Shown: in pieces, positions 840 through 20,804 of the stretch
Layout of the letters: every line of letters begins with the position of its first letter
Numbering within the stretch: position 1 is the first letter of the stretch
Assembly: GCF_000015025.1 (NCBI RefSeq)
Contig: NC_008578.1
Location: 2,310,001-2,342,000, forward strand
DNA: 32,000 nucleotides
Direction: 5' to 3'
From: Acidothermus cellulolyticus 11B
GTDB lineage: Bacteria; Actinomycetota; Actinomycetes; Acidothermales; Acidothermaceae
The notes under the pieces: model-generated
Told to the model about the DNA's origin: nothing
Databases searched by the model: none
What the model saw: the letters and a program-made list of their open reading frames with translations, nothing else
Made by a program: the position numbers and the translations under genes

Positions 840-2000
840 TCACACGCCCAGTCCGGTCGCGCCATCCGACGGTTGAGCACCGCTTTCTGCAGGGTGATAT
901 GGGCTGCCTTCTGCCGCGGGGTATACGACGAGGTCGGTCGCTTTGACGGCAAACCATGCGTCATCACCGACCCGTAACCGGAGCAGGGCGAGTGATTCGG
1001 CGGTAATATCTGCGATCATATTCGCCGGACGTGACACGCCAAGGCGGACGACGTGACCGTACTCCTCCACACTCGTCACGCGGGCTTTCCAACAGTTGCG
1101 CGGACTGCCGTCCGGCCGCTCGCGGTACACGGCGACAGCGCTTGGCCGCACGGCGACGAAGACATCACCGACAGGCGCGTCGACCACCTGCCATTCCATT
1201 CCGGTTCCGAGTCGAATCACCCGTCCGTCACACACCCCCCGGTGCAGATTGATCCCACAGAGCCGTGCCACGTACTCCGTGCGCGGATGGGATGCAACCG
1301 CCGCCGGGGCGCCGCGTTGCACCACCCTGCCGGATTCCATCACGACAAGGTGATCCGCCAGGACGAACGCATCCATCGGGTCGTGGGTCACCACAATGAC
1401 ACCGCCGGGAAATGTCGTGAGCATCTCCCGCAGCTCGGCCCGCACGCTCATTCGCGTCCCAATGTCGAGGGCGGCAAGCGGCTCGTCCAGCAGAAGGACG
1501 GTTGGATCGACGGCGAGCGCCCGGGCGAGTGCGACGCGCTGGGCTTGACCTCCCGAGATCTCGGTCGGACGCCGATGCGCGAGCGCCCCGACGCCGAAGC
1601 GATCCAGCAGCTGCTGTGCCCGGCGTCGCGCGGCGGCTTTTCTGACTCCGTGAGCCCGCAGACCAAAGGCAACGTTATCCAATACCGTCATCCGGGGAAA
1701 GAGAACGTAATCCTGCGGAACGTAGCCGACCTGTCGCTCCCGCGGGCTGAGCCTGATCCGGTCCGCATCGTCTACGATGCGGCCGCCGATCGCGATGAAT
1801 CCAGCGGTCAACCGCTCCAGACCGGCAATCGCTCGCAGCAATGTGCTCTTGCCGGCGCCGCTGGGACCGAGGACGGCGAGAATTTCACCCGGTGCAACGG
1901 ACAGGGCCGCATCCAGCCTGAAAGTGTCGCGTCGCACGACGGCGTGGACGTCCAGCCCCGGGTGTCGTGGCGTCGTGTCCGTTGGTTCCGGCATGCTCAC
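840..2000 (-). CDS. modC: molybdate ABC transporter ATP-binding protein with C-terminal TOBE-like domain
   Basis: Walker A GPSGAGKS, ABC signature ISGGQAQRVALARAL and Walker B LLLDEP. Sits directly downstream of modB in a modABC arrangement. GTG start at 2000. Confidence 0.85.
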   Translation of the reverse strand: MSMPEPTDTTPRHPGLDVHAVVRRDTFRLDAALSVAPGEILAVLGPSGAGKSTLLRAIAGLERLTAGFIAIGGRIVDDADRIRLSPRERQVGYVPQDYVLFPRMTVLDNVAFGLRAHGVRKAAARRRAQQLLDRFGVGALAHRRPTEISGGQAQRVALARALAVDPTVLLLDEPLAALDIGTRMSVRAELREMLTTFPGGVIVVTHDPMDAFVLADHLVVMESGRVVQRGAPAAVASHPRTEYVARLCGINLHRGVCDGRVIRLGTGMEWQVVDAPVGDVFVAVRPSAVAVYRERPDGSPRNCWKARVTSVEEYGHVVRLGVSRPANMIADITAESLALLRLRVGDDAWFAVKATDLVVYPAAEGSPYHPAESGAQPSDGATGLGV

Positions 2001-2013
2001 GGCACGTTTCGTC

Positions 2014-2817
2014 TCACAGAGCGGCGATCCATCGACGCCACAACGCCAGCAGTACGCCGGTGGACGCCAGCAACAACACCAGGCTCAATCCGATTGCCGA
2101 TTGCGGATCGTGCTGAAATTGCAAATAGATTTCCAGCGGCATGGTGCGCGTGGTCCCTGGGAAGCTGCCCGCAAACGTAATCGTTGCTCCAAACTCACCG
2201 ATCGCCCGCGCCCAGCAGAGCAATGAACCTGCGAAAACGGCGGGCAACACGATCGGCAGAACCACGCGCCGGAAGATGAACAGCGGCCCGGCGCCCAGCG
2301 TGGATGCAACATCGGCGTACTTCGTGTCCACCGCACGCAGAGCACCTTCAACCGACAGCACAAGGAACGGCATCGCGACAAAAGTCTCGGCGACGACGAC
2401 GCCGGCGGTGGTGAACGGCAGCGAGATCCCCGCGGCGTGCCAGAGCCAGCTCCCGACCAGACCGCGGCGCCCGTACGCCAACAGGAGAGTGAGCCCTCCT
2501 GCAACCGGCGGCAGCACGAGCGGCAAGGCGATGACCGCCCGCGCGGCGTTCCGAATGGACGTCGGGAGCCGGCACATCGTCCAGGCAAGCGGAAGCCCGA
2601 CCAGCAGCGAGAGGAAAGTCGCGATCGTCGCCGTCTCCAGGGACAAGCGCAACGCTGTCAATGCCTCCGGTTTGCCCAATTCGGCTACCAGATTGCGCCA
2701 CGGCGCCCGGACCGCAAGGCTGACGAGCGGAACGCACAAGAAGAGGAAGCCGGCGAGGGCGAAGACGGCGACGAGCCCTGTCTGGAGCGCGTACCTACGG
2801 GACGTCGAAGCCGGCAT
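2014..2817 (-). CDS. modB: molybdate ABC transporter permease
   Basis: Multi-TM ORF with the EAA-loop-like segment VEGALRAVDTKYADVASTLGAGPLFIFRRVVLP. Lies between modA and modC. The preferred start is the internal ATG at 2817; the track ORF extends to 2853. Confidence 0.8.
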   Translation of the reverse strand: MPASTSRRYALQTGLVAVFALAGFLFLCVPLVSLAVRAPWRNLVAELGKPEALTALRLSLETATIATFLSLLVGLPLAWTMCRLPTSIRNAARAVIALPLVLPPVAGGLTLLLAYGRRGLVGSWLWHAAGISLPFTTAGVVVAETFVAMPFLVLSVEGALRAVDTKYADVASTLGAGPLFIFRRVVLPIVLPAVFAGSLLCWARAIGEFGATITFAGSFPGTTRTMPLEIYLQFQHDPQSAIGLSLVLLLASTGVLLALWRRWIAAL

Positions 2818-3718
2818 CGGCAAACACCTGCTCGTTGTTACGGACGAAAGCAACGAACGCGGCCGCCAACGCGGAATTCCTGCTGCCGGTGACGACCGCG
2901 AGGACGTACGTGTTCACCGCAGAGCCAGCCTGCGCGATCGGCACACCGTCGACCTTCCCACCGGCCCGGCGCACGTCCGTCCGGTATACCAGGCCGGCGT
3001 CGACCTCGCCGAGCTCCACTTTGGCAAGCACGGAACTGACGTCGTCTTCGAGGGTCACCGGATGGACCGTGACGCCGGCTGTTTGCAGCAGCTTCGCGGC
3101 GGCCGAGCCGCACGGCACCGTAGGCGCGCACAGCGCCAGCCGTATCGCCGAACTTGCGAGGTCTGCCAACGAGCGGATATGACGGGGATTCCCCGGGGCG
3201 ACTGCGATTTCCAGTTCATTACGTGCGAAAGTCACCGGGTTGCTTGCCTTGTTGTGCGCGACGACCTGCTGCATGATCTGCTCATTGGCGGATGCGAAGA
3301 CGTCGGCGGGCGCACCTTGTAAAATCTGCTCGGCCAGCGTGTCTGACCCGCCGAAATTCGTCACCACCCGAACCCCCGGGTGGGCTGCTTCGAAACCTCC
3401 GGCGAGCTGGGTGAAGACATCCTGCAGTGACGCCGCAGCGAAGACCACGATCCGGCCGCCGCCGGAGGCCGTTGATGACGCTTTCGATCCGTGCCCACTC
3501 GCGCACGCCGCCGCGAACACGGCAACAACGGGAATAAGGAGCACGGCTCGGCAGCGCCGCAAGCCGGATCGGACGCCGCCCGGATATTCGCCGCCCGGAT
3601 AGTCGCGCCGCGATCCGGGCCCGTCACCGTGTCCCGCACAGGTCAACCGCCGGGGGCGCTGTTTCGCAACCAGCCGCTCAATGCCCGACGTACGTGTCAG
3701 AGCCGGCAAAACCCACAT
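2795..3718 (-). CDS. modA: molybdate ABC transporter substrate-binding lipoprotein
   Basis: Lipoprotein-type signal RRCRAVLLIPVVAVFAAAC, then a periplasmic-binding-protein body (IVVFAAASL...NFGGSDTLAEQI). The start is uncertain: ATG 3718, ATG 3781, or TTG 3562, which gives a clean signal peptide and about 255 aa. Confidence 0.8.
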   Translation of the reverse strand: MWVLPALTRTSGIERLVAKQRPRRLTCAGHGDGPGSRRDYPGGEYPGGVRSGLRRCRAVLLIPVVAVFAAACASGHGSKASSTASGGGRIVVFAAASLQDVFTQLAGGFEAAHPGVRVVTNFGGSDTLAEQILQGAPADVFASANEQIMQQVVAHNKASNPVTFARNELEIAVAPGNPRHIRSLADLASSAIRLALCAPTVPCGSAAAKLLQTAGVTVHPVTLEDDVSSVLAKVELGEVDAGLVYRTDVRRAGGKVDGVPIAQAGSAVNTYVLAVVTGSRNSALAAAFVAFVRNNEQVFADAGFDVP

Positions 3719-3725
3719 CCTCTCG

Positions 3726-4124
3726 TCATGACGCCGGAACTTCGACAACGACGTTGGTCGCTTTGATGGCGGCAACGGCAAGGGTTCCCGGCTGGAGCTC
3801 CAGGTCGTCCGCCGCCTCGCGGCTCATCAGCGAAACAACGCGGTACGGTCCGCACTGCATCTCGACCTGAGCCATCACCGTGTCCCGAACCACCCGGGTG
3901 ACGATTCCCGCCAATCGGTTCCGCGCGCTTTCGCGGGCCGTCGGACCGGTGGTGATCGCCTCATGCCGCGACTGAGCCAACTGAGCCAGCTCGGCACCGT
4001 CAACCACCTGACGGCCGGAGGTATCCCGGGCGACGCTCAATGCGCCCGCCGCGATCCACCGTCGGACCGTGTCGTCGCTGACTCCGAGCAGGCGGGCCGC
4101 TTCACCAACCCGTAACGCCGTCAC
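3726..4124 (-). CDS. molybdenum-responsive regulator candidate: excisionase/MerR-type HTH plus TOBE (Mop) domain
   Basis: Only the last 132 codons of the 341-aa track ORF look real. GTG start at 4124. [29 protein letters not shown], then the TOBE-like [60 protein letters not shown]. Heads the mod operon. Confidence 0.8.
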
Positions 4125-12144: not shown

Positions 12145-14598
12145 GTGCTGCGACGTGATACGGACCAGACGTCGGCCGCGAATGGTTCTCTGCCGATCTG
12201 GCGGGACCCGACGCGTTCTCCGCGGGAGCGGGTTGCGGATTTGCTGGCCAAGATGACGCTCGAGGAAAAGATCGCCCAGTTGTACGGCGTCTGGGTGGGA
12301 GCGGACGCGTCCGGCGACGGCGTGGCGCCGCACCAACACGACATGAGCAACCCGGACCTTGACTGGCACGCGCTGATTTCGCGAGGCATCGGACAGTTGA
12401 CCCGTCCCTTTGGTACGGCGCCGGTGGATCCTGCCCTCGGCGCACGTGCGCTGGCGCGAACTCAGGCGGAAATCGTCGCCGCCAATCGTCACGGCGTCCC
12501 GGCACTGGTGCACGAAGAGTGCCTCACGGGTTTCATGACGTGGGGCGCCACCACATACCCCACGCCGTTGGCCTGGGGGGCGAGTTTCGACCCGGCGCTC
12601 GTCGAGGAAATGGGCCGCCAGATCGGCACTGCCATGCGGCGCATGGGTGTGCACCAAGGACTCGCCCCGGTTCTCGACGTCGTCCGCGATTACCGCTGGG
12701 GCCGGGTGGAGGAGACCATCGGTGAGGACCCTTACCTCGTGGGCACGATCGGATCCGCGTACGTGAAGGGGCTCGAATCCGCCGGAATTGTCGCGACCCT
12801 CAAACACTTCGTCGCATATTCCGGTTCGCGGGCGGGCCGCAATTTCGCACCCGTGGCGACGGGACCGCGCGAACTCGCGGATGTTTTTTTGTTGCCTTTT
12901 GAAATGGCGCTCCGCCTAGGCGGCGCGCGCTCCGTCATGCATTCGTACAACGAAATCGACGGCGTACCCGTCGCAGCAAATGCGGATCTGCTCACCAACC
13001 TTCTTCGCGACCAATGGGATTTTCACGGCACGGTCGTCTCGGACTACTTCGGCATCGCTTTCCTGCGTCGCCTGCACCAGGTCGCGGAAGATGACACCGG
13101 TGCCGCTGTTCTTGCCCTCACGGCCGGCATCGACGTCGAACTTCCCACCGTGCACTGCTATGGAGAGCCGTTGACCCAAGCGGTTCGAGCCGGCCTGGTC
13201 TCCGAGGAGCTCATTGACCGCGCAGTCTGCCGGGTACTCGAGCAGAAGTGCGAGCTTGGCCTGCTCGACCCGGATTGGACACCGGAGCCGGCGGCTGTCC
13301 GCGAACTTGGCCACCATGCCGAGACCGACGCCGATGACGCCCGCGGCACGATCAACCTTGACCCCCCGGAATCCCGCGCCCTCGCCCGGCGCCTGGCGGA
13401 GGAATCCGTCGTGCTGCTCGCCAACACCGGTGTGCTGCCCATCAGCAACGTACGACGGATGGCTGTCGTCGGCCCGCTGGCTGACGACCCAGCGGCGATG
13501 CTCGGTTGCTACACCTTCGAGAGTCACGTCCGTTCCGCCCATCCGCAGGTGCCGCCCGGAATCGACATTCCGTCCGTTCTCGAGGCCCTGCGGGCCGAAT
13601 TCCCGGAGACCAAAATCGAGCACGCCCGAGGCTGCGACGTCCGCAATGACGACCGATCCGGCTTCCCGGAGGCCGTGGCCCTTGCGGAGAGCGCAGACCT
13701 CTGCGTGATTGTCGTCGGCGATCGGTCCGGGCTCTTCGGTCGAGGAACCTCCGGGGAAGGCTCCGACGTCCCGGACCTGCGGCTACCCGGCGTGCAGGAA
13801 GAATTCATCCACCGGATCTGTGATGCCGGCACACCGGCGGTCCTCGTTCTCCTCACCGGACGGCCGTACGCTCTCGGCGGGTTGGCCGATCGGGTTCAGG
13901 CGATCGTGCAAGCGTTCTTCCCCGGTGAGGAAGGAGGATCGGCGATTGCCGGCATCCTCTCCGGCCGGGTCAGCCCGTCCGGTCGCCTTCCGGTGAGCAT
14001 CCCGCGGCACCCCGGTGGCCAGCCGGGTACCTACCTCACGCCGCGGCTCGGTCAGCGATCGGACGTGAGCAGTGTCGACCCGACGCCGCTCTGGCCGTTC
14101 GGTTACGGCCTGTCCTACACGTCATTTGCCTGGGACGACGTCCGGTTGGACGGCGTGCCGATCAATGAGCCCGTGGAGACGCCGGTTGACAGCGTCGTCG
14201 AGCTCTCCCTGCGGGTGACGAACACCGGTCACCGGCTCGGCACCGACGTCGTCCAGCTCTATCTTCACGATCCGATCGCCCAAGTGACCCGGCCGACGGT
14301 TCAGCTCATTGGGTATGCCCGAGTCACCGTCGCTGCAGGGGAGAGCCGCCGGGTCACATTCCGCATCCCGACCGACGTCTTCGGATTCACCGGGCGCGAC
14401 GGGCACCGGATCGTCGAGCCCGGTGAGATTGAACTGCGCCTGTCGGAATCCAGCAATTGCCCGCGCTTCTCGGTCCCGGTCCGCCTTGTCGGTGAGGTAC
14501 GGCGTCTCGGTCCCGACCGTGCGTTGGTAACGACGGCGCAGGTGAGCGAACCCGTTGCCGCCGCCGGACAACACCAGGGCGAGGGACTAGCCGAATAA
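12145..14598 (+). CDS. glycoside hydrolase family 3 (beta-glucosidase / beta-xylosidase type) with C-terminal Fn3-like domain
   Basis: 817 aa. GH3 hallmarks: LEEKIAQL, RWGRVEETIGEDPYL, KHFVAYS, and SVMHSYNEIDGVPV...GTVVSDY with the nucleophile Asp. GTG start at 12145 after GGAGAG. Confidence 0.9.
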   Translation: MLRRDTDQTSAANGSLPIWRDPTRSPRERVADLLAKMTLEEKIAQLYGVWVGADASGDGVAPHQHDMSNPDLDWHALISRGIGQLTRPFGTAPVDPALGARALARTQAEIVAANRHGVPALVHEECLTGFMTWGATTYPTPLAWGASFDPALVEEMGRQIGTAMRRMGVHQGLAPVLDVVRDYRWGRVEETIGEDPYLVGTIGSAYVKGLESAGIVATLKHFVAYSGSRAGRNFAPVATGPRELADVFLLPFEMALRLGGARSVMHSYNEIDGVPVAANADLLTNLLRDQWDFHGTVVSDYFGIAFLRRLHQVAEDDTGAAVLALTAGIDVELPTVHCYGEPLTQAVRAGLVSEELIDRAVCRVLEQKCELGLLDPDWTPEPAAVRELGHHAETDADDARGTINLDPPESRALARRLAEESVVLLANTGVLPISNVRRMAVVGPLADDPAAMLGCYTFESHVRSAHPQVPPGIDIPSVLEALRAEFPETKIEHARGCDVRNDDRSGFPEAVALAESADLCVIVVGDRSGLFGRGTSGEGSDVPDLRLPGVQEEFIHRICDAGTPAVLVLLTGRPYALGGLADRVQAIVQAFFPGEEGGSAIAGILSGRVSPSGRLPVSIPRHPGGQPGTYLTPRLGQRSDVSSVDPTPLWPFGYGLSYTSFAWDDVRLDGVPINEPVETPVDSVVELSLRVTNTGHRLGTDVVQLYLHDPIAQVTRPTVQLIGYARVTVAAGESRRVTFRIPTDVFGFTGRDGHRIVEPGEIELRLSESSNCPRFSVPVRLVGEVRRLGPDRALVTTAQVSEPVAAAGQHQGEGLAE

Positions 14599-14742: not shown

Positions 14743-16218
14743 ATGGCGGAAGCTGCGCAGACCCGAGTCCGCGATTGGCTGGCGGCCGTGGTCTCGCCGC
14801 GGAGCCGGCGGGACGCGCGCGCTCTCCAGGGTTACCTGCGACGAATCGCCTCCGGTGACCTCGTATCGTCGCCGCCCGTAATGCGTACCCGGTGGGCGCA
14901 CGAGATCTTGACCGGTATCGACGAACTTCGTGGCCAGTGGTCTGCGCACCTCAACACGGACCGGCGGATCGTCCGCGGGCTGGCCACCGAATGGCGGCGG
15001 ATGAACGACGTGGCCTGGGAGATGATGTCGGCGTCCGAAAATACCGTCCGTGACGTGGCGGACGCCGCAGCGTCAGCAACCGAGCTCTCCGAACGGATTA
15101 CGGTCATCGCACACGGAGTGGAAGAAACCGCGGCAACAATTCGGAGCATCGCCGACCACGCATCGCAAACGTCGACGGTCTCCTCGCACGGCGCCAAGAA
15201 GGCGGAAATCGCCCGAGAATGCTTTGAAACCCTGCGTGCCGCCACGCAACGGGTGGAAGACATTGTCAAACTGATCGTCCGCATCGCGTCCCAGACGCAA
15301 TTGCTCGCCCTCAACGCGTCGATTGAAGCGGCGCGAGCCGGTGAGCTGGGGCGCGGCTTCGCGGTCGTCGCCGGCGAAGTGAAGCAGTTGGCCGAGGCAA
15401 CCGGGCGGGCCACCGACGATGTGATCGCTACCATGCGGGACATCGAAACCGGCTCGGCAGCCGCCGCGGACGCGGTCCGAGACGTCACCGTCACGATTGA
15501 TCAGGTGGACGCCGGACAGGCGGCCATCGCCGCGGCGGTCGTCCAGCAGACGGCGACAACAAGTTCGATCGGGGACAGCGCGTCGGCCGCAGCCGAACGC
15601 GCGACCGTTCTCGCCGAGCACGTCAAGGCGCTCACGCACGCGGTCCGGCTCTCCGCTTACGCCGGTGCTCAGGCCCGCACGGTCGCCGCGGAAGTGGCGC
15701 ACGCCGAGCAGGCACTGAACGACGCATTGGCGCGGTGGACCTTCGCCGAGATGCCCGACGATGACGTCGGGGAACCCGCGGCCGGCTTGGACCCGGATTC
15801 CGGTGTCACGAAAGAGAACGGCGTCATCACCATCCAGAATTATGCGATCGGCGAAGGCTTGCATCGCTTTTCATACCGCGGGCGATGGGGACACGCGACA
15901 GCGAATATCGAGGCGGAAGGCACGAATTCCCATTCGAGCATGCCCGGCGACACGGCGACCCTGCGCTTTTCGGGACGGCAAATCCGGTTCTACGGCGTCC
16001 TCGCACCGAACCACGGTCTGGCCAGCGTCCGCGTCGACGACCAGCCGGAGACGATTATCGATCAGTACGCCGAGCAACGGGTGCACGGGGCCTTGCAGTG
16101 GGAGAGTCCGCTGCTGCCGCCGGGTGAGCACACGTTCACGCTCACGGTTCTCGGTGAGGCGAATCCCAAGTCCCGCTACGTCTGGGTCAACATCGACCGG
16201 GTCGAGGTCGTCGAATAA
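14743..16218 (+). CDS. soluble methyl-accepting-chemotaxis-protein signalling-domain protein with C-terminal beta-sandwich (CBM-like) domain
   Basis: Canonical MCP hairpin-tip motif [38 protein letters not shown]. No hydrophobic TM segment. The last ~135 aa ([29 protein letters not shown]...[10 protein letters not shown]...[12 protein letters not shown]) look like a jelly-roll carbohydrate-binding-type module. Confidence 0.8.
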
Positions 16219-16257: not shown

Positions 16258-17553
16258 GTGGTCGTCAGCACCGCACCTGGTCGCATCGCGCTGATCGGAT
16301 CGGGAGAAACGACGCCGACGATGGTGGGCGTCCACCGCGAGATCTTCGCCCTGACGCCGCCGGGTGACGCGGTGCTGGTGGACACCACGTTCGGATTCCA
16401 ACTCAACGCGGACGAACTCGTCGCTCGTACGCAACACTATTTCGCGGAGAGCCTCGGCCGCCGTGTCGATGCGGTGTCATGGCGGCGCGCGGACGCCGCC
16501 GCGTCGACGTTGGACCGTGCTCTCGCAAGGATCTCTACGGCTACGTGGGTTTTCGCCGGTCCGGGAAGCCCAAGTTACGCCCTGCGCCAGTGGCGCGACA
16601 CGCCCATGGTCGGTGCGCTCGGCAGCGTCATCCGACGGGGCGGCACGCTCGTGTTGGGCAGCGCGGCTGCCATAACCGTCGGAAAGTACGCAGTTCCGGT
16701 TTACGAGGTGTACAAGGCGGGTTTCGATCCTTATTGGGACGAGGGTCTCGACCTGCTGGGTACATTCCTCGACCTTGAGCTTGCCGTCATTCCGCATTTT
16801 GACAACGCCGAAGGGGGCACGCACGACACCCGCTACTGCTATCTCGGCGAACCGCGGTTGGCCGCGCTCGAACGGGAACTGCCGGATGGGTCGGGGATTC
16901 TGGGCATTGACGAACACACCGCCGTCATCATCGACGTGGCCGAGCAGACTGTACGCGTGACCGGTAACCGGACGATGACCCTTCGAGCGCGCGGTCGGTC
17001 GCGGATTTTCCCGGCCGGTTCGTGCCTGCAGGTAAGCGACGTGCGAGCGTGGTTCGCAGGCGAGGCGACGGTCGGGTCGGGCTTCCCCGAACCGGCAACC
17101 GGGGCAGCACCGCCGCCGACAACCGGCGCGGTGCCGGTCTTAGCAGGTGACGCGCCCGTGCTGTCCCTGCACGAGGCGACCCTCCGCGCACGGACCCGCT
17201 TCGACGCCGCCGCAGCGGACCGTGACGCAGCAACGATGGTCGACGCGATCCTTGGTCTGGAACAGGCCATTCAGGACTGGAGTGCGGACACTTTACAGAG
17301 CAGCGACCGTGACGAAGCACGGCGCGAACTCCGGTCGCTCATCGTCCGGCTCGGCGAATTCGCCCAAGCAGGGGCACTCGACACGTCCGACCTGGTCGCC
17401 CCATTCGTCACCGCGCTCCTCGACGTCCGGTCACAGGCACGCAGCCGCGGTGATTACCAAACGGCAGACGACATTCGTGACCGGCTCATCCGGGCCGGTG
17501 TCGAAGTGCGGGACACACCGGACGGCGTCCGGTGGCTTCTCCCGGAAAAATAG
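16258..17553 (+). CDS. fusion protein: class-I glutamine-amidotransferase / peptidase-S51-like N-domain plus cysteinyl-tRNA-synthetase-like C-terminal region
   Basis: The N-terminal assignment (RIALIGSGETTP...WVFAGPGSPSYAL...GTLVLGSAAA...IPHFDNAEGG) is from memory only. The C-terminus GDYQTADDIRDRLIRAGVEVRDTPDGVRWLL closely resembles the extreme C-terminus of bacterial CysRS. Confidence 0.65.
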   Translation: MVVSTAPGRIALIGSGETTPTMVGVHREIFALTPPGDAVLVDTTFGFQLNADELVARTQHYFAESLGRRVDAVSWRRADAAASTLDRALARISTATWVFAGPGSPSYALRQWRDTPMVGALGSVIRRGGTLVLGSAAAITVGKYAVPVYEVYKAGFDPYWDEGLDLLGTFLDLELAVIPHFDNAEGGTHDTRYCYLGEPRLAALERELPDGSGILGIDEHTAVIIDVAEQTVRVTGNRTMTLRARGRSRIFPAGSCLQVSDVRAWFAGEATVGSGFPEPATGAAPPPTTGAVPVLAGDAPVLSLHEATLRARTRFDAAAADRDAATMVDAILGLEQAIQDWSADTLQSSDRDEARRELRSLIVRLGEFAQAGALDTSDLVAPFVTALLDVRSQARSRGDYQTADDIRDRLIRAGVEVRDTPDGVRWLLPEK

Positions 17554-17629: not shown

Positions 17630-18115
17630 TCAGCCGGCCTCGAGACGTCGTATCTCAACCGCATCGGGGGTAAAGGCAAGCGTGAGGTGGAACCCCTCGA
17701 CGTGTAAGGCACATTCATAGTGGCCAGGGATCCGCCACGACACCCGGGCGGATCGGATTTCCCGGCCGGTCAATGTCTCGAGCGCCTTGTTGACGGTCCG
17801 GACCTGCTCGTCGTACCGGCGTCCCAGCGGCAACCGGTGCATCACGCTACCGAGGAGCAGTTCGACATCCGGACCGAGGCGGCGGGCATGCCCGGTCTCC
17901 AAGGCCAACCGGCAGGTACGTTCGACCGCGTCGACATCGTCGGCCGGAATGGTCCCGGCGGCAACGTCCTGAGCGAGCCGGGCATAATCGGCCCGTCGAT
18001 CGTCAGGCAGTGCAGCGGCGAACGCCTTCAGGGCGGCTGCCACGGCACGAGCCTCGTCCTCCGAAACCGTGACGGGAATCGGATCCAACGGCGGCGCGTC
18101 CTGCTCCGATGTCAT
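17630..18115 (-). CDS. hypothetical protein, translationally coupled to cysH
   Basis: 161 aa from the ATG at 18115, which overlaps the cysH TGA (ATGA at 18112-18115). High GC3. No family recognised. The 5' 31 codons of the track ORF are rejected. Confidence 0.6.
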   Translation of the reverse strand: MTSEQDAPPLDPIPVTVSEDEARAVAAALKAFAAALPDDRRADYARLAQDVAAGTIPADDVDAVERTCRLALETGHARRLGPDVELLLGSVMHRLPLGRRYDEQVRTVNKALETLTGREIRSARVSWRIPGHYECALHVEGFHLTLAFTPDAVEIRRLEAG

Positions 18116-18882
18116 GTAACGATGAGTTCCTTGGCCTCGTGTTCGAACGTGCCGGTCTCGATCGGGCAGTGAATGCCGCATTCCTTCGGAGCGCCCTGCT
18201 CCCACCACCAGCGCCCGGCGCGGTCGTCTTCACCGGGCTGAATAGGACGGGTGCACGGGGCACACCCGATGCTCGTGTACCCCTGCTCGTAGAGGGGGTG
18301 AATCGGGACGTCGTTGCTCCGGGCGTACTCCCAGACCTCGTCATTGGTCCAGTCGGCAAGTGCGTTGACTTTGACGATCCCGCCGTGGTCGTGGTCGAGT
18401 TCCACTTTCTTGATGGCGGCCCGAGACGCCCACTGGTCACGGCGCAGACCGGTGAACCAGCCGTCCAAGTCGCGCAATTTCTTAACCAGCGGGCGCACCT
18501 TGCGGACCTGGCAGCAGAACATCCGCTGCGATACGCTCCGCCGAAAGAGATCCATGCCCTGAGCGCTCACCATCTCGCTGACTTCGGTTGCGTCGGGAAA
18601 CAGAATTTCCCACCGTGTCTGCGGATACCGCTCCCGCACCTCGTCAATGAAGGCGTACGTCTCCTGCGGCAGACGGCCGGTGTCGACGGTGATGACCCGG
18701 ACGTCGGGACGGAGTTTCGCCGCCATGTCAAGGACGACCATGCCGTCGATCTGCAGCGCGGTCACCACGGCGATGCGATCGCCGAGTTCTTCCAACGCCC
18801 AGGCGATAACGTCCTGCGGTTCCTGATCGTCGAGTTGAACCGCGATCTCACCGATTTCCAAGTCGTCAAAGACGCGTCCCAT
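18112..18882 (-). CDS. cysH: adenosine 5'-phosphosulfate (APS) reductase, Fe-S type
   Basis: PAPS-reductase fold with the Cys pair CC (MFCCQVRKV), CxxC (GCAPCT) and the catalytic KECGIH motif, as in actinobacterial APS reductases. Confidence 0.9.
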   Translation of the reverse strand: MGRVFDDLEIGEIAVQLDDQEPQDVIAWALEELGDRIAVVTALQIDGMVVLDMAAKLRPDVRVITVDTGRLPQETYAFIDEVRERYPQTRWEILFPDATEVSEMVSAQGMDLFRRSVSQRMFCCQVRKVRPLVKKLRDLDGWFTGLRRDQWASRAAIKKVELDHDHGGIVKVNALADWTNDEVWEYARSNDVPIHPLYEQGYTSIGCAPCTRPIQPGEDDRAGRWWWEQGAPKECGIHCPIETGTFEHEAKELIVT

Positions 18883-18884
18883 GG

Positions 18885-20804
18885 TCAGCCTCCTGACATG
18901 GCCATGACGAGGGAAATTTCGGTACCCGGAGCCACCGGAGTATCCAAACCGTCAAGGGTGCGGATGTCGTCATCTCCGACCGTGACGAGATACGCCTCGG
19001 CAACGTCGCCGTTCGGCAGGACGGCGGCACCGAACGCCGGATGCCGCCGGCTGACGGCCTCCAGCGCCTCGCGGACCGTTCGAGCCGACACCTCGTACCG
19101 ATCCGCACCACCGATCATCGCGAGCAACGGACCGGGCACGGTAACAACAACGCCAGTCGCGGATTCGGATTCCCGCTCGCCGCCGGCGATCCGCTGCAAT
19201 TCCTCGTCGGTCCGGGTCGCTGTGAAATCGCCGAAGGTGAAATCGGCGGCGCCGCGGCGTCGTCGCTCCTCGAGCCACGCGCCGACAAGCCGGGCCAGAA
19301 CATGCTCGATCTCAGTCGTCGGGACGCGTCGCAGCAGACGCCGTCCGATCGCCGCCCGCCGTCCGAGACCGCCTCCGATGGTGACGTCATACGCCTCAAT
19401 GCGCTCGTCGGAACCCTCGACGGAGGTCGACGTACCTTGCAGACCGATTTCACCGATCCAGTGCTGGGCGCAGGCGTGCGGGCAGCCGTCCATGTGAATG
19501 GTGAGTCCGTCGATTTCCTGCGCGCCGAAGGTGGCGGCGAGATGGTCGAGAATCGCGTCGAGTTTTCCTTTCGTCTCAGCAACCGAGTAATTGCAGAACT
19601 TGTGGCTGGTGCACGCGACCGATCGACCGTACGCCCGGCTTCGGTCGAGCGGAAAATCCATGGCCGCGAGCGCGTCGCGGACGTCGTCCAATCGATCCCG
19701 CGGCACATTGCCGAGGATGAAGTTCTGCTGCCGGGTGAACCGCACGTCGCCGCCGAGCTGGTCCGCAAGGTCGGCGATCGCGTGCAGGTGGTGCGCGGTA
19801 ATCCGCCCGGACGGCACCGGAACGCCGACGTACACCAGCTCGGGATTGCGCTGCGGATGCACGCCGAGATGGTCGGCCTCACCGACGGGTTCGGGCGCCC
19901 GGCCGTCGGGGAGTCGGCGGCCCAGCACCTCCTCGACTTTGGCGCGCATGCCTTCCGGCCCGTAATCGTCGACCATGAATTTGATGCGCGCCTTGGCTCG
20001 GGAAAGCCGGTACCGCAGATCACGCTGCCAGGCATCGGTCACCGCACGCAGCACGGCGATTGCATCGTCCCGGGGAACAAAAACGCCGAGGTCGCGCGAG
20101 AGCCGCGGGGTGTTCGACATCCCGCCGCCGACCCGAAGACCGAAGCCCAGTTCGCCGTCCTGCTCAGTCGCGACGAGAGCGACGTCGTGGAAATCCGGTC
20201 CGTTGCACTGAGCCGGGCAGGCCGAAATCGTGTACTTCAGCTTGCGCGGCAGATTCGAGTACTCCGGGTTGCCCGAGAAGAAGGCAGCGGCCTCCTTGAC
20301 GATGGGCCATACGTCAAAGAGCTCCCCGTCCTGCAACCCCGCGACTGGGCAGCTGGTGATGTTCCGGACGGTGTCGCCCTCGGCCCCGGCCGTCGTGAGC
20401 CCGGCGGCCTCGATCGCCGCCATCACGTCGGGAAGCTGCGCCATGGGAACCCAGTGCAGCTGGATGCCCTGGCGGGTCGTCAATTCCGCCTCGCCGCGGC
20501 CGAAAGCGGCACTGATGTCACCCAGCGCCCGGAGCTGGGCCGGGGTCACGCGACCAGCCGGAACCTTGATCCGCACCATGAATGTGCCGATCTTCGGCTT
20601 GTCATGGGCCAGGCCCCACCAGTACAGCCGGACGATCTCCTCCTCGGAGATTTCCTCGTACCCACGCTCGATCAGCTCGGGAAGCTCGTCTCGAACCGCA
20701 AGCCCGGGACGATCGCGTTTGAGCCGTTCGATGAAGTTTCGCTTGTATACAAGGTCCCAGTCCGGCGCTGGCCGGAGCTGGCGGGACGGGGCGGTAAGAG
20801 TCAC
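18885..20804 (-). CDS. sirA: ferredoxin-dependent sulfite reductase (SirA/NirA type) with C-terminal CysO/ThiS/MoaD-like beta-grasp domain ending in GG
   Basis: Siroheme/4Fe-4S ligands CTSHKFC...CPHAC. 639 aa. The last ~90 aa (VVVTVPGPLLAMIGGADRYEVSARTVREALEAVSRRHPAFGAAVL...YLVTVGDDDIRTLDGLDTPVAPGTEISLVMAMSGG) contain no Cys and follow the CysO/MoaD pattern. GTG start at 20804. Confidence 0.85.
   Translation of the reverse strand: MTLTAPSRQLRPAPDWDLVYKRNFIERLKRDRPGLAVRDELPELIERGYEEISEEEIVRLYWWGLAHDKPKIGTFMVRIKVPAGRVTPAQLRALGDISAAFGRGEAELTTRQGIQLHWVPMAQLPDVMAAIEAAGLTTAGAEGDTVRNITSCPVAGLQDGELFDVWPIVKEAAAFFSGNPEYSNLPRKLKYTISACPAQCNGPDFHDVALVATEQDGELGFGLRVGGGMSNTPRLSRDLGVFVPRDDAIAVLRAVTDAWQRDLRYRLSRAKARIKFMVDDYGPEGMRAKVEEVLGRRLPDGRAPEPVGEADHLGVHPQRNPELVYVGVPVPSGRITAHHLHAIADLADQLGGDVRFTRQQNFILGNVPRDRLDDVRDALAAMDFPLDRSRAYGRSVACTSHKFCNYSVAETKGKLDAILDHLAATFGAQEIDGLTIHMDGCPHACAQHWIGEIGLQGTSTSVEGSDERIEAYDVTIGGGLGRRAAIGRRLLRRVPTTEIEHVLARLVGAWLEERRRRGAADFTFGDFTATRTDEELQRIAGGERESESATGVVVTVPGPLLAMIGGADRYEVSARTVREALEAVSRRHPAFGAAVLPNGDVAEAYLVTVGDDDIRTLDGLDTPVAPGTEISLVMAMSGG

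Follow-up and report, generated by a model that had tools for sequence, protein, structure and literature searches.

Introduction

The fusion of a ThiS domain to the C-terminus of a sulfite reductase was reported in Nocardioides and Acidothermus by Iyer, Burroughs and Aravind in 2006 (PMC1779556), who proposed that the sulfur of such clusters is passed to a ThiS/MoaD-like protein and who listed Nocardioides sp. with both the fusion and a separate operon for ThiS, JAB and cysteine synthase. Here, we analyse a gene of this type, encoding a sulfite reductase core followed by a CysO-like sulfur-carrier domain, in a 32,000-nucleotide (nt) stretch of the genome of Acidothermus cellulolyticus 11B (contig NC_008578.1, positions 2,310,001–2,342,000 of the forward strand), hereafter referred to as the window, in which it occupies positions 18885..20804 of the reverse strand. 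As in the fusions described in 2006 from Nocardioides sp. and Acidothermus cellulolyticus, the same ThiS/MoaD-type domain follows an actinobacterial sulfite reductase within a sulfate-assimilation cluster. In the window only three genes, arranged as a compact operon, make up this cluster; the broader class of sulfur-assimilation cluster under which both genomes were listed in 2006 also comprises genes for JAB, E1 and ATP sulfurylase. An initial annotation, made from the sequence alone, had implied that the fusion was novel, which did not hold: the architecture has been known since 2006, is widespread and is routinely annotated in databases (NCBI uses the name "MoaD/ThiS family protein" and JGI also annotates such proteins), its function being a predicted one. 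Sequence, profile comparison, predicted fold and conservation all support the structural part of that annotation, as set out below.

The two halves of the protein resemble separate components of Mycobacterium tuberculosis. CysO (Rv1335), which acts with MoeZR, CysM and Mec+, aligns with the tail from end to end, including the Gly–Gly that bears the thiocarboxylate. It is, however, a free protein of ~93 residues encoded beside mec and cysM, whereas the domain studied here is joined to the reductase in a single chain and has no adjacent partner gene. SirA/NirA (Rv2391; PDB 1zj8) is similar to the core in both fold and cysteine motifs but, unlike the fusion, lacks a C-terminal carrier domain. Its gene, too, is followed by cysH. 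The physiological source of the sulfur that is loaded onto CysO has been stated to be unknown (PMC3227635).

Two further systems share elements of this arrangement. The HcyS/HcyF/HcyD/MetY system of Wolinella succinogenes likewise uses the thiocarboxylate of a ThiS-like carrier as sulfide donor for a pyridoxal phosphate (PLP)-dependent sulfhydrylase (PMC8191291). The Wolinella carrier differs in being free and in its synthesis with one additional C-terminal residue, which must first be removed; the pathway leads to homocysteine. The sulfite reductase of that cluster was reportedly proposed as the sulfide source by Krishnamoorthy and Begley in 2011. In M. tuberculosis MoaX (MoaD–MoaE), too, a ThiS/MoaD-type carrier is covalently joined to an enzyme from its own pathway (PMC4326299; PMC3227635). 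The MoaX carrier is N-terminal and cleavage is needed to free its Gly–Gly, whereas the C-terminal carrier of the present protein closes the polypeptide and its Gly–Gly is therefore already free.

Organization of the fusion gene and its product

The gene (18885..20804, reverse strand) was delineated from the list of open reading frames, Pfam matches and an AlphaFold2 model. It comprises 639 codons plus a TGA stop and starts with GTG at position 20804, with GGAG six bases upstream; the frame list and Pfam thus agree with the SirA/NirA-type frame of 639 residues that had initially been annotated. The model of the whole protein, computed from an alignment of 61 sequences, had a mean predicted local distance difference test (pLDDT) score of 86.9 and a predicted template modelling (pTM) score of 0.81. 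The ferredoxin-type sulfite/nitrite reductase core encompasses residues 1–~543 (19176..20804, reverse strand), as defined by Pfam, Foldseek and the cysteine motifs, and the β-grasp sulfur-carrier domain of CysO/ThiS/MoaD type encompasses residues 552–639 (18888..19151, reverse strand), as defined by PF02597, profile comparison and Foldseek. Residues ~544–551 (ERESESAT; 19152..19175, reverse strand) link the two. The alignment columns of this segment are poorly conserved, and its low pLDDT, below 50 at residues 544–547, indicates that the linker is probably flexible. The chain ends in VMAMSGG immediately before the stop codon, the two glycines being encoded by GGA GGC (18888..18893, reverse strand). 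Neither a stop nor a frameshift interrupts the reading frame between core and tail.

We consider it probable that the gene product is a bifunctional protein, combining a siroheme/[4Fe–4S] ferredoxin-dependent sulfite reductase with a CysO-type sulfur-carrier domain. This estimate refers to the tail as a thiocarboxylate carrier as a whole and leaves the consuming pathway open.

The C-terminal carrier domain

The last ~90 residues, which contain a domain of ~88 residues, are free of cysteine. A ferredoxin was ruled out on these grounds, as the initial annotation had already concluded from the tail sequence. The Pfam family PF02597 (ThiS) spans residues 573–639 and exceeds its curated cutoff (22.5 bits) both with the whole protein (25.5 bits) and when the tail is searched by itself (29 bits), and the last position of the Pfam model falls on the last residue of the protein. 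All 27 homologous tails that were searched match the same family. A profile derived from these 27 tails was compared with the PDB, and the two best full-length matches were CysO from Amycolatopsis orientalis (4n6e_B; E-value 2e-13, profile positions 3–91 on chain positions 2–90) and CysO from M. tuberculosis (3dwg_C; E-value 2.2e-10, profile positions 3–91 on chain positions 2–93). Both alignments run from end to end, with Gly–Gly falling on Gly–Gly. A Thermus MoaD-related protein and SAMP1 were ranked next.

In the AlphaFold2 model, residues 552–634 form a compact domain with pLDDT values of 82–93. Foldseek matched this domain to CysO 4n6e_B with a target template modelling (TM) score of 0.91 and a root-mean-square deviation (rmsd) of 1.5 Å over 88 columns, and to CysO 3dwg_C with a target TM score of 0.85, the rmsd values of the CysO superpositions ranging from 1.5 to 2.0 Å. 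The initial assignment of a CysO/MoaD/ThiS-like β-grasp tail with a terminal Gly–Gly was thus borne out by a Pfam score above cutoff, by the profile match to CysO and by the predicted fold. The last four residues (636–639) have pLDDT values below 50, which suggests that the Gly–Gly tail is flexible in the modelled protein. In an exhaustive representative search, the nearest stand-alone relatives of the tail were free proteins of ~90 residues, with 37–49% sequence identity and the same end position.

The SAMP1 matches were considered in view of a SAMP/TtuB-like conjugation, in which the Gly–Gly end would be ligated to lysines of target proteins. SAMP1 is the top NCBIfam match of the tail (33 bits; cutoff 60), and SAMP1 structures are found among the fold matches; this score is nevertheless far below the cutoff, the matches with CysO are much stronger, and the protein ligated to the targets would be an enzyme of 70 kDa. 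We regard this alternative as very improbable.

The reductase core

In the core, Pfam recognizes the pairing of NIR_SIR_ferr with NIR_SIR twice (148 and 159 bits). Its top Foldseek match is M. tuberculosis NirA/SirA (1zj8_A), with a target TM score of 0.86 and 32% sequence identity. The solved chain of 566 residues aligns with residues 11–514 of the fusion only, so that the C-terminal extension over stand-alone SirA, which had been noted initially from the length of the protein, is real. The cysteines of the siroheme/[4Fe–4S] site (C398, C404, C441 and C445) are invariant among the 61 sequences, and the CX5C and CX3C motifs that contain them align with those of plant nitrite reductase and of solved enzymes. 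The core lies outside the NCBIfam equivalogs for NirA, scoring 345 bits against a cutoff of 594 for NF007125 and 320 bits against 523 for NF007126. It belongs to a distinct subfamily inside the superfamily of ferredoxin-dependent sulfite/nitrite reductases. Similarity to plant nitrite reductases is approximately equal to that to M. tuberculosis SirA. Sulfite is favoured over nitrite as the predicted substrate by the tight coupling to adenosine 5'-phosphosulfate (APS) reductase seen at every locus. A DsrAB entry (PDB 2v4j) was also encountered among the distant fold matches of the core.

Conservation of the fusion and of the Gly–Gly terminus

All 120 listed homologues are fused, with lengths of ~606–698 residues and, except for one identical database entry, 62–70% identity to the query; no named homologue exceeds 70% identity to the protein of the window. 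Most of them already carry a precomputed ThiS annotation, and they derive from many isolates, among them Sphaerimonospora mesophila, Leekyejoonella antrihumi and Flexivirga oryzae, as well as from many metagenome-assembled genomes and metagenomes. A scan of reference genomes with an alignment of six tails yielded 15 fusion loci, from Mycobacteriales, Streptosporangiaceae, Jatrophihabitantaceae, Intrasporangiaceae, Nocardioides, Marmoricola and Nocardiopsaceae, and the fusion is therefore conserved across several actinobacterial families. Conservation of the tail comes close to that of the core: with respect to the query, the tails are 61% identical and essentially ungapped, compared with 69% identity for the cores.

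An assembly or sequencing artefact, in which a lost stop or a frameshift would have joined sirA to a separate small cysO, had been named at the outset as something to exclude. We found no point in its favour, and the continuous frame and the recurrence of the same architecture in the 120 listed homologues, the 15 reference-genome loci and 25 metagenome loci speak against it. With the fusion present in more than 100 homologues and conserved across many independent sources, the artefact is excluded for practical purposes and its probability is negligible.

The Gly–Gly constitutes the exact C-terminus in 115 of the 121 sequences that were retrieved. Of the remaining six, five have 2–16 residues after the Gly–Gly and one is truncated. 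The same exact ending is found in every one of the 25 independent metagenome copies of the fusion, including those from a divergent clade.

The operon and the position after the reductase gene

The fusion gene is packed against cysH (18112..18882, reverse strand), which encodes a thioredoxin-dependent APS reductase (PF01507, 161 bits; TIGR02055, 250 bits with a cutoff of 235), and cysH is in turn followed by a third gene encoding 161 residues (17630..18115, reverse strand). The spacer between the fusion stop and the cysH ATG is 2 nt (GGA GGC TGA cc ATG), equivalent to 5 nt from the last glycine codon, which corrects the 3 nt initially annotated. The ATG of the third gene overlaps the cysH stop (ATGA). 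In 20 genome loci, cysH and the third gene are the sole conserved neighbours of the fusion.

At positions 18880..18893 of the reverse strand, the GGA GGC codons provide the GGAGG Shine–Dalgarno sequence of cysH, and the end of the carrier and the ribosome-binding site share bases. Such an overlap was rejected as the cause of Gly–Gly conservation because the spacing between fusion and cysH varies, and the Gly–Gly is retained at loci where cysH starts 32, 61 or 145 nt downstream.

Homologues of the third gene, which has no family assigned, encode ~150–175 residues, share the conserved motifs LALETGKAR and RMPGRY, and nearly always end in glycine. Searches for a Pfam, NCBIfam or PDB sequence match returned none. 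An AlphaFold2 model computed from a four-sequence alignment (pLDDT 88.7) shows six helices followed by a four-stranded sheet, and Foldseek found no match to it at E-values of 0.001 or lower. Such homologues lie directly 3' of cysH in ten fusion loci; relatives were located at 12810–13262 of locus L016, 12848–13378 of L017, 12911–13372 of L019 and 12711–13184 of L100, as well as in the 80 metagenome loci L020–L099. In all 72 of these metagenome loci that had enough upstream sequence, cysH immediately precedes the third gene, and the stop codon of the one often overlaps the start codon of the other. The reductase upstream was fused in 25, unfused in 17 and absent in 13 of the 55 informative metagenome loci, and the third gene therefore tracks cysH and not the tail. 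On this basis, a role as a dedicated partner of the fused carrier was ruled out, as was its identity as a divergent JAMM protein, E1 or rhodanese, given that it has no sequence or structure match to these and no conserved cysteine or histidine motif.

In some relatives with an unfused reductase, a slot of 750 nt between the reductase gene and cysH is occupied by two genes, one of the DsrE family (48 bits) and one for TusA (60 bits), as at 3446–3856 and 3873–4112 of locus L070 and at 3254–3790 and 3801–4046 of locus L080; the same arrangement is found at L069, L071, L072, L076–L078, L085 and L093. DsrE and TusA families are cysteine-persulfide carriers, and their presence here suggests that different lineages attach a carrier at this step. 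In Corynebacterium, in agreement with the initial annotation, the position between cysI and cysH is held by the gene for CysX, a small ferredoxin-like protein with four cysteines (PMC1266029). DsrE/TusA and CysX thus share the slot after the sulfite reductase and before cysH with the carrier studied here, but none of them is a Gly–Gly thiocarboxylate carrier. Different lineages thus place different small sulfur- or electron-handling modules at that position.

The rest of the window contains genes for ModABC, an MctP permease, sugar utilization and regulators, and no cysD/N or cysK/E/M was found in it. The ABC transporter at its left end (843..3781, reverse strand) was considered as a sulfate importer and rejected, as it corresponds to ModABC for molybdate (TIGR01256, 121 bits; TIGR02141, 202 bits). 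Convergent with the cys operon, a gene for a protein of 431 residues (16258..17553, forward strand) encodes an N-terminal region with a weak Peptidase_S51/cyanophycinase-like match (16.5 bits) and a C-terminal anticodon-binding domain of cysteinyl-tRNA ligase type (PF23493; 32.5 bits, above cutoff), which is an unusual combination. The signalling domain of methyl-accepting chemotaxis proteins (PF00015, 90 bits) is present in a protein of 491 residues (14743..16218, forward strand), whose gene lies in a sugar-utilization neighbourhood of this actinobacterium.

Evidence bearing on a carrier function

Several observations weigh against the assignment of the tail as a working thiocarboxylate carrier. 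Genes for E1, CysM, MetY or JAMM proteins were found neither in the window nor as conserved neighbours in the 20 genome loci, nor at loci L100 and L101. The NCBIfam matches of the tail, SAMP1 and archaeal MoaD, are both below cutoff. Four homologues end in GGAR or GGSR and one has a 16-residue extension, and such variants would either need trimming or be inactive as carriers. Two of the former, at L100 (10001–14589) and L101 (10001–14637), have a fusion stop that overlaps the cysH start and belong to operons that continue with cysH, the third gene, a siroheme synthase (NAD_binding_7/Sirohm_synth_M) and a uroporphyrinogen methyltransferase; here, the two extra residues would block the thiocarboxylate unless trimmed. 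At least one reductase of the same clade, at locus L043 (729–2504; core score 1088 bits), has no tail and is immediately followed by cysH, from which it follows that the tail is dispensable for sulfite reduction. Within the clade, as judged from this sequence, the tail can be lost or may never have been gained. An E1 would also have to accept a carrier that is tethered to a 60-kDa enzyme, and no biochemical or experimental study of any such fusion was found in the searchable literature.

Some of these points favour an alternative in which the β-grasp domain is a structural or docking module, serving the binding of ferredoxin or CysH, oligomerization or as an autoregulatory plug, with no chemistry at its C-terminus. 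None of the neighbourhoods examined links the domain to an enzyme that would activate it or consume its product, one member of the clade lacks the tail, some members have residues beyond the Gly–Gly, and β-grasp domains are common interaction modules. A docking role would, however, leave unexplained both a Gly–Gly that is exactly terminal, in 115 of 121 and in 25 of 25 sequences, on a probably flexible tail, and a similarity that is specific to CysO and extends from end to end rather than being that of a generic β-grasp domain. We therefore consider it unlikely.

A further alternative retains a working thiocarboxylate carrier but assigns it to a pathway other than that of cysteine, namely homocysteine/methionine synthesis through a MetY-type enzyme, as with Wolinella HcyS, or the synthesis of molybdopterin, thiamin or a thio-metabolite. 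The sulfide donor of W. succinogenes MetY is the thiocarboxylate of a sulfur-carrier protein (PMC8191291), O-acetylhomoserine sulfhydrylase is among the neighbours of ThiS clusters of the sulfur-assimilation type (Iyer et al., PMC1779556), and a MoaD-related protein is the second-best PDB match of the tail. Against this, the two best full-length matches are CysO proteins, in both sequence and fold, and neither MetY nor MoaE nor ThiG is encoded near the fusion in any locus examined, so that a non-cysteine pathway appears quite unlikely.

Proposed mechanism

For the fused domain as a CysO-type carrier, a reaction sequence may be outlined by analogy with the CysO/MoeZR/CysM/Mec system of M. tuberculosis. 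A MoeZ-type E1 encoded elsewhere would adenylate the terminal glycine, Gly639, and the acyl-adenylate would then be converted to a thiocarboxylate, most economically with the sulfide just made by the attached reductase or, alternatively, with the persulfide of the rhodanese domain of the E1. A PLP-dependent enzyme of CysM type, or of MetY type, would take the thiocarboxylate as sulfide donor, and a JAMM hydrolase would regenerate the carrier. In this scheme, the fusion would keep nascent sulfide protein-bound where it is produced. The arrangement suggests that the sulfur of the fused carrier comes from the attached reductase, and the channelling of sulfide onto a thiocarboxylate is plausible as we infer it from the analogy.

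A more detailed version, which we regard as unlikely, is that the Gly–Gly tail of the adenylated CysO domain would swing as far as the siroheme pocket of the reductase to which it is attached and take up sulfide there in cis, without release of free sulfide, in a manner reminiscent of DsrC and DsrAB. The reductase would then be the physiological donor for CysO-type thiocarboxylates, and the 161-residue protein could be a further scaffold of a channel from APS to carrier. In DsrC with DsrAB (PDB 2v4j), a flexible C-terminal arm takes sulfur from a siroheme sulfite reductase, as is well established. The likeness is a functional analogy only: DsrC has another fold, relies on cysteine chemistry, is a separate polypeptide and belongs to dissimilatory metabolism.

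Implications for actinobacterial sulfur metabolism

The present data go beyond the description of 2006 in the breadth and strictness of Gly–Gly conservation, in the operon of fusion, cysH and 161-residue protein, in the finding of DsrE and TusA in the slot between reductase and cysH, and in the protein family that is coupled to cysH. The conserved fusion of carrier and reductase represents the strongest genomic hint for sulfite reductase as the sulfur donor of CysO, and it offers a single polypeptide in which such a role could be examined. Cysteine synthesis by way of a thiocarboxylate is believed to aid the resistance of actinomycetes, including M. tuberculosis, to oxidative stress, and a variant that channels sulfide would therefore be of physiological interest.

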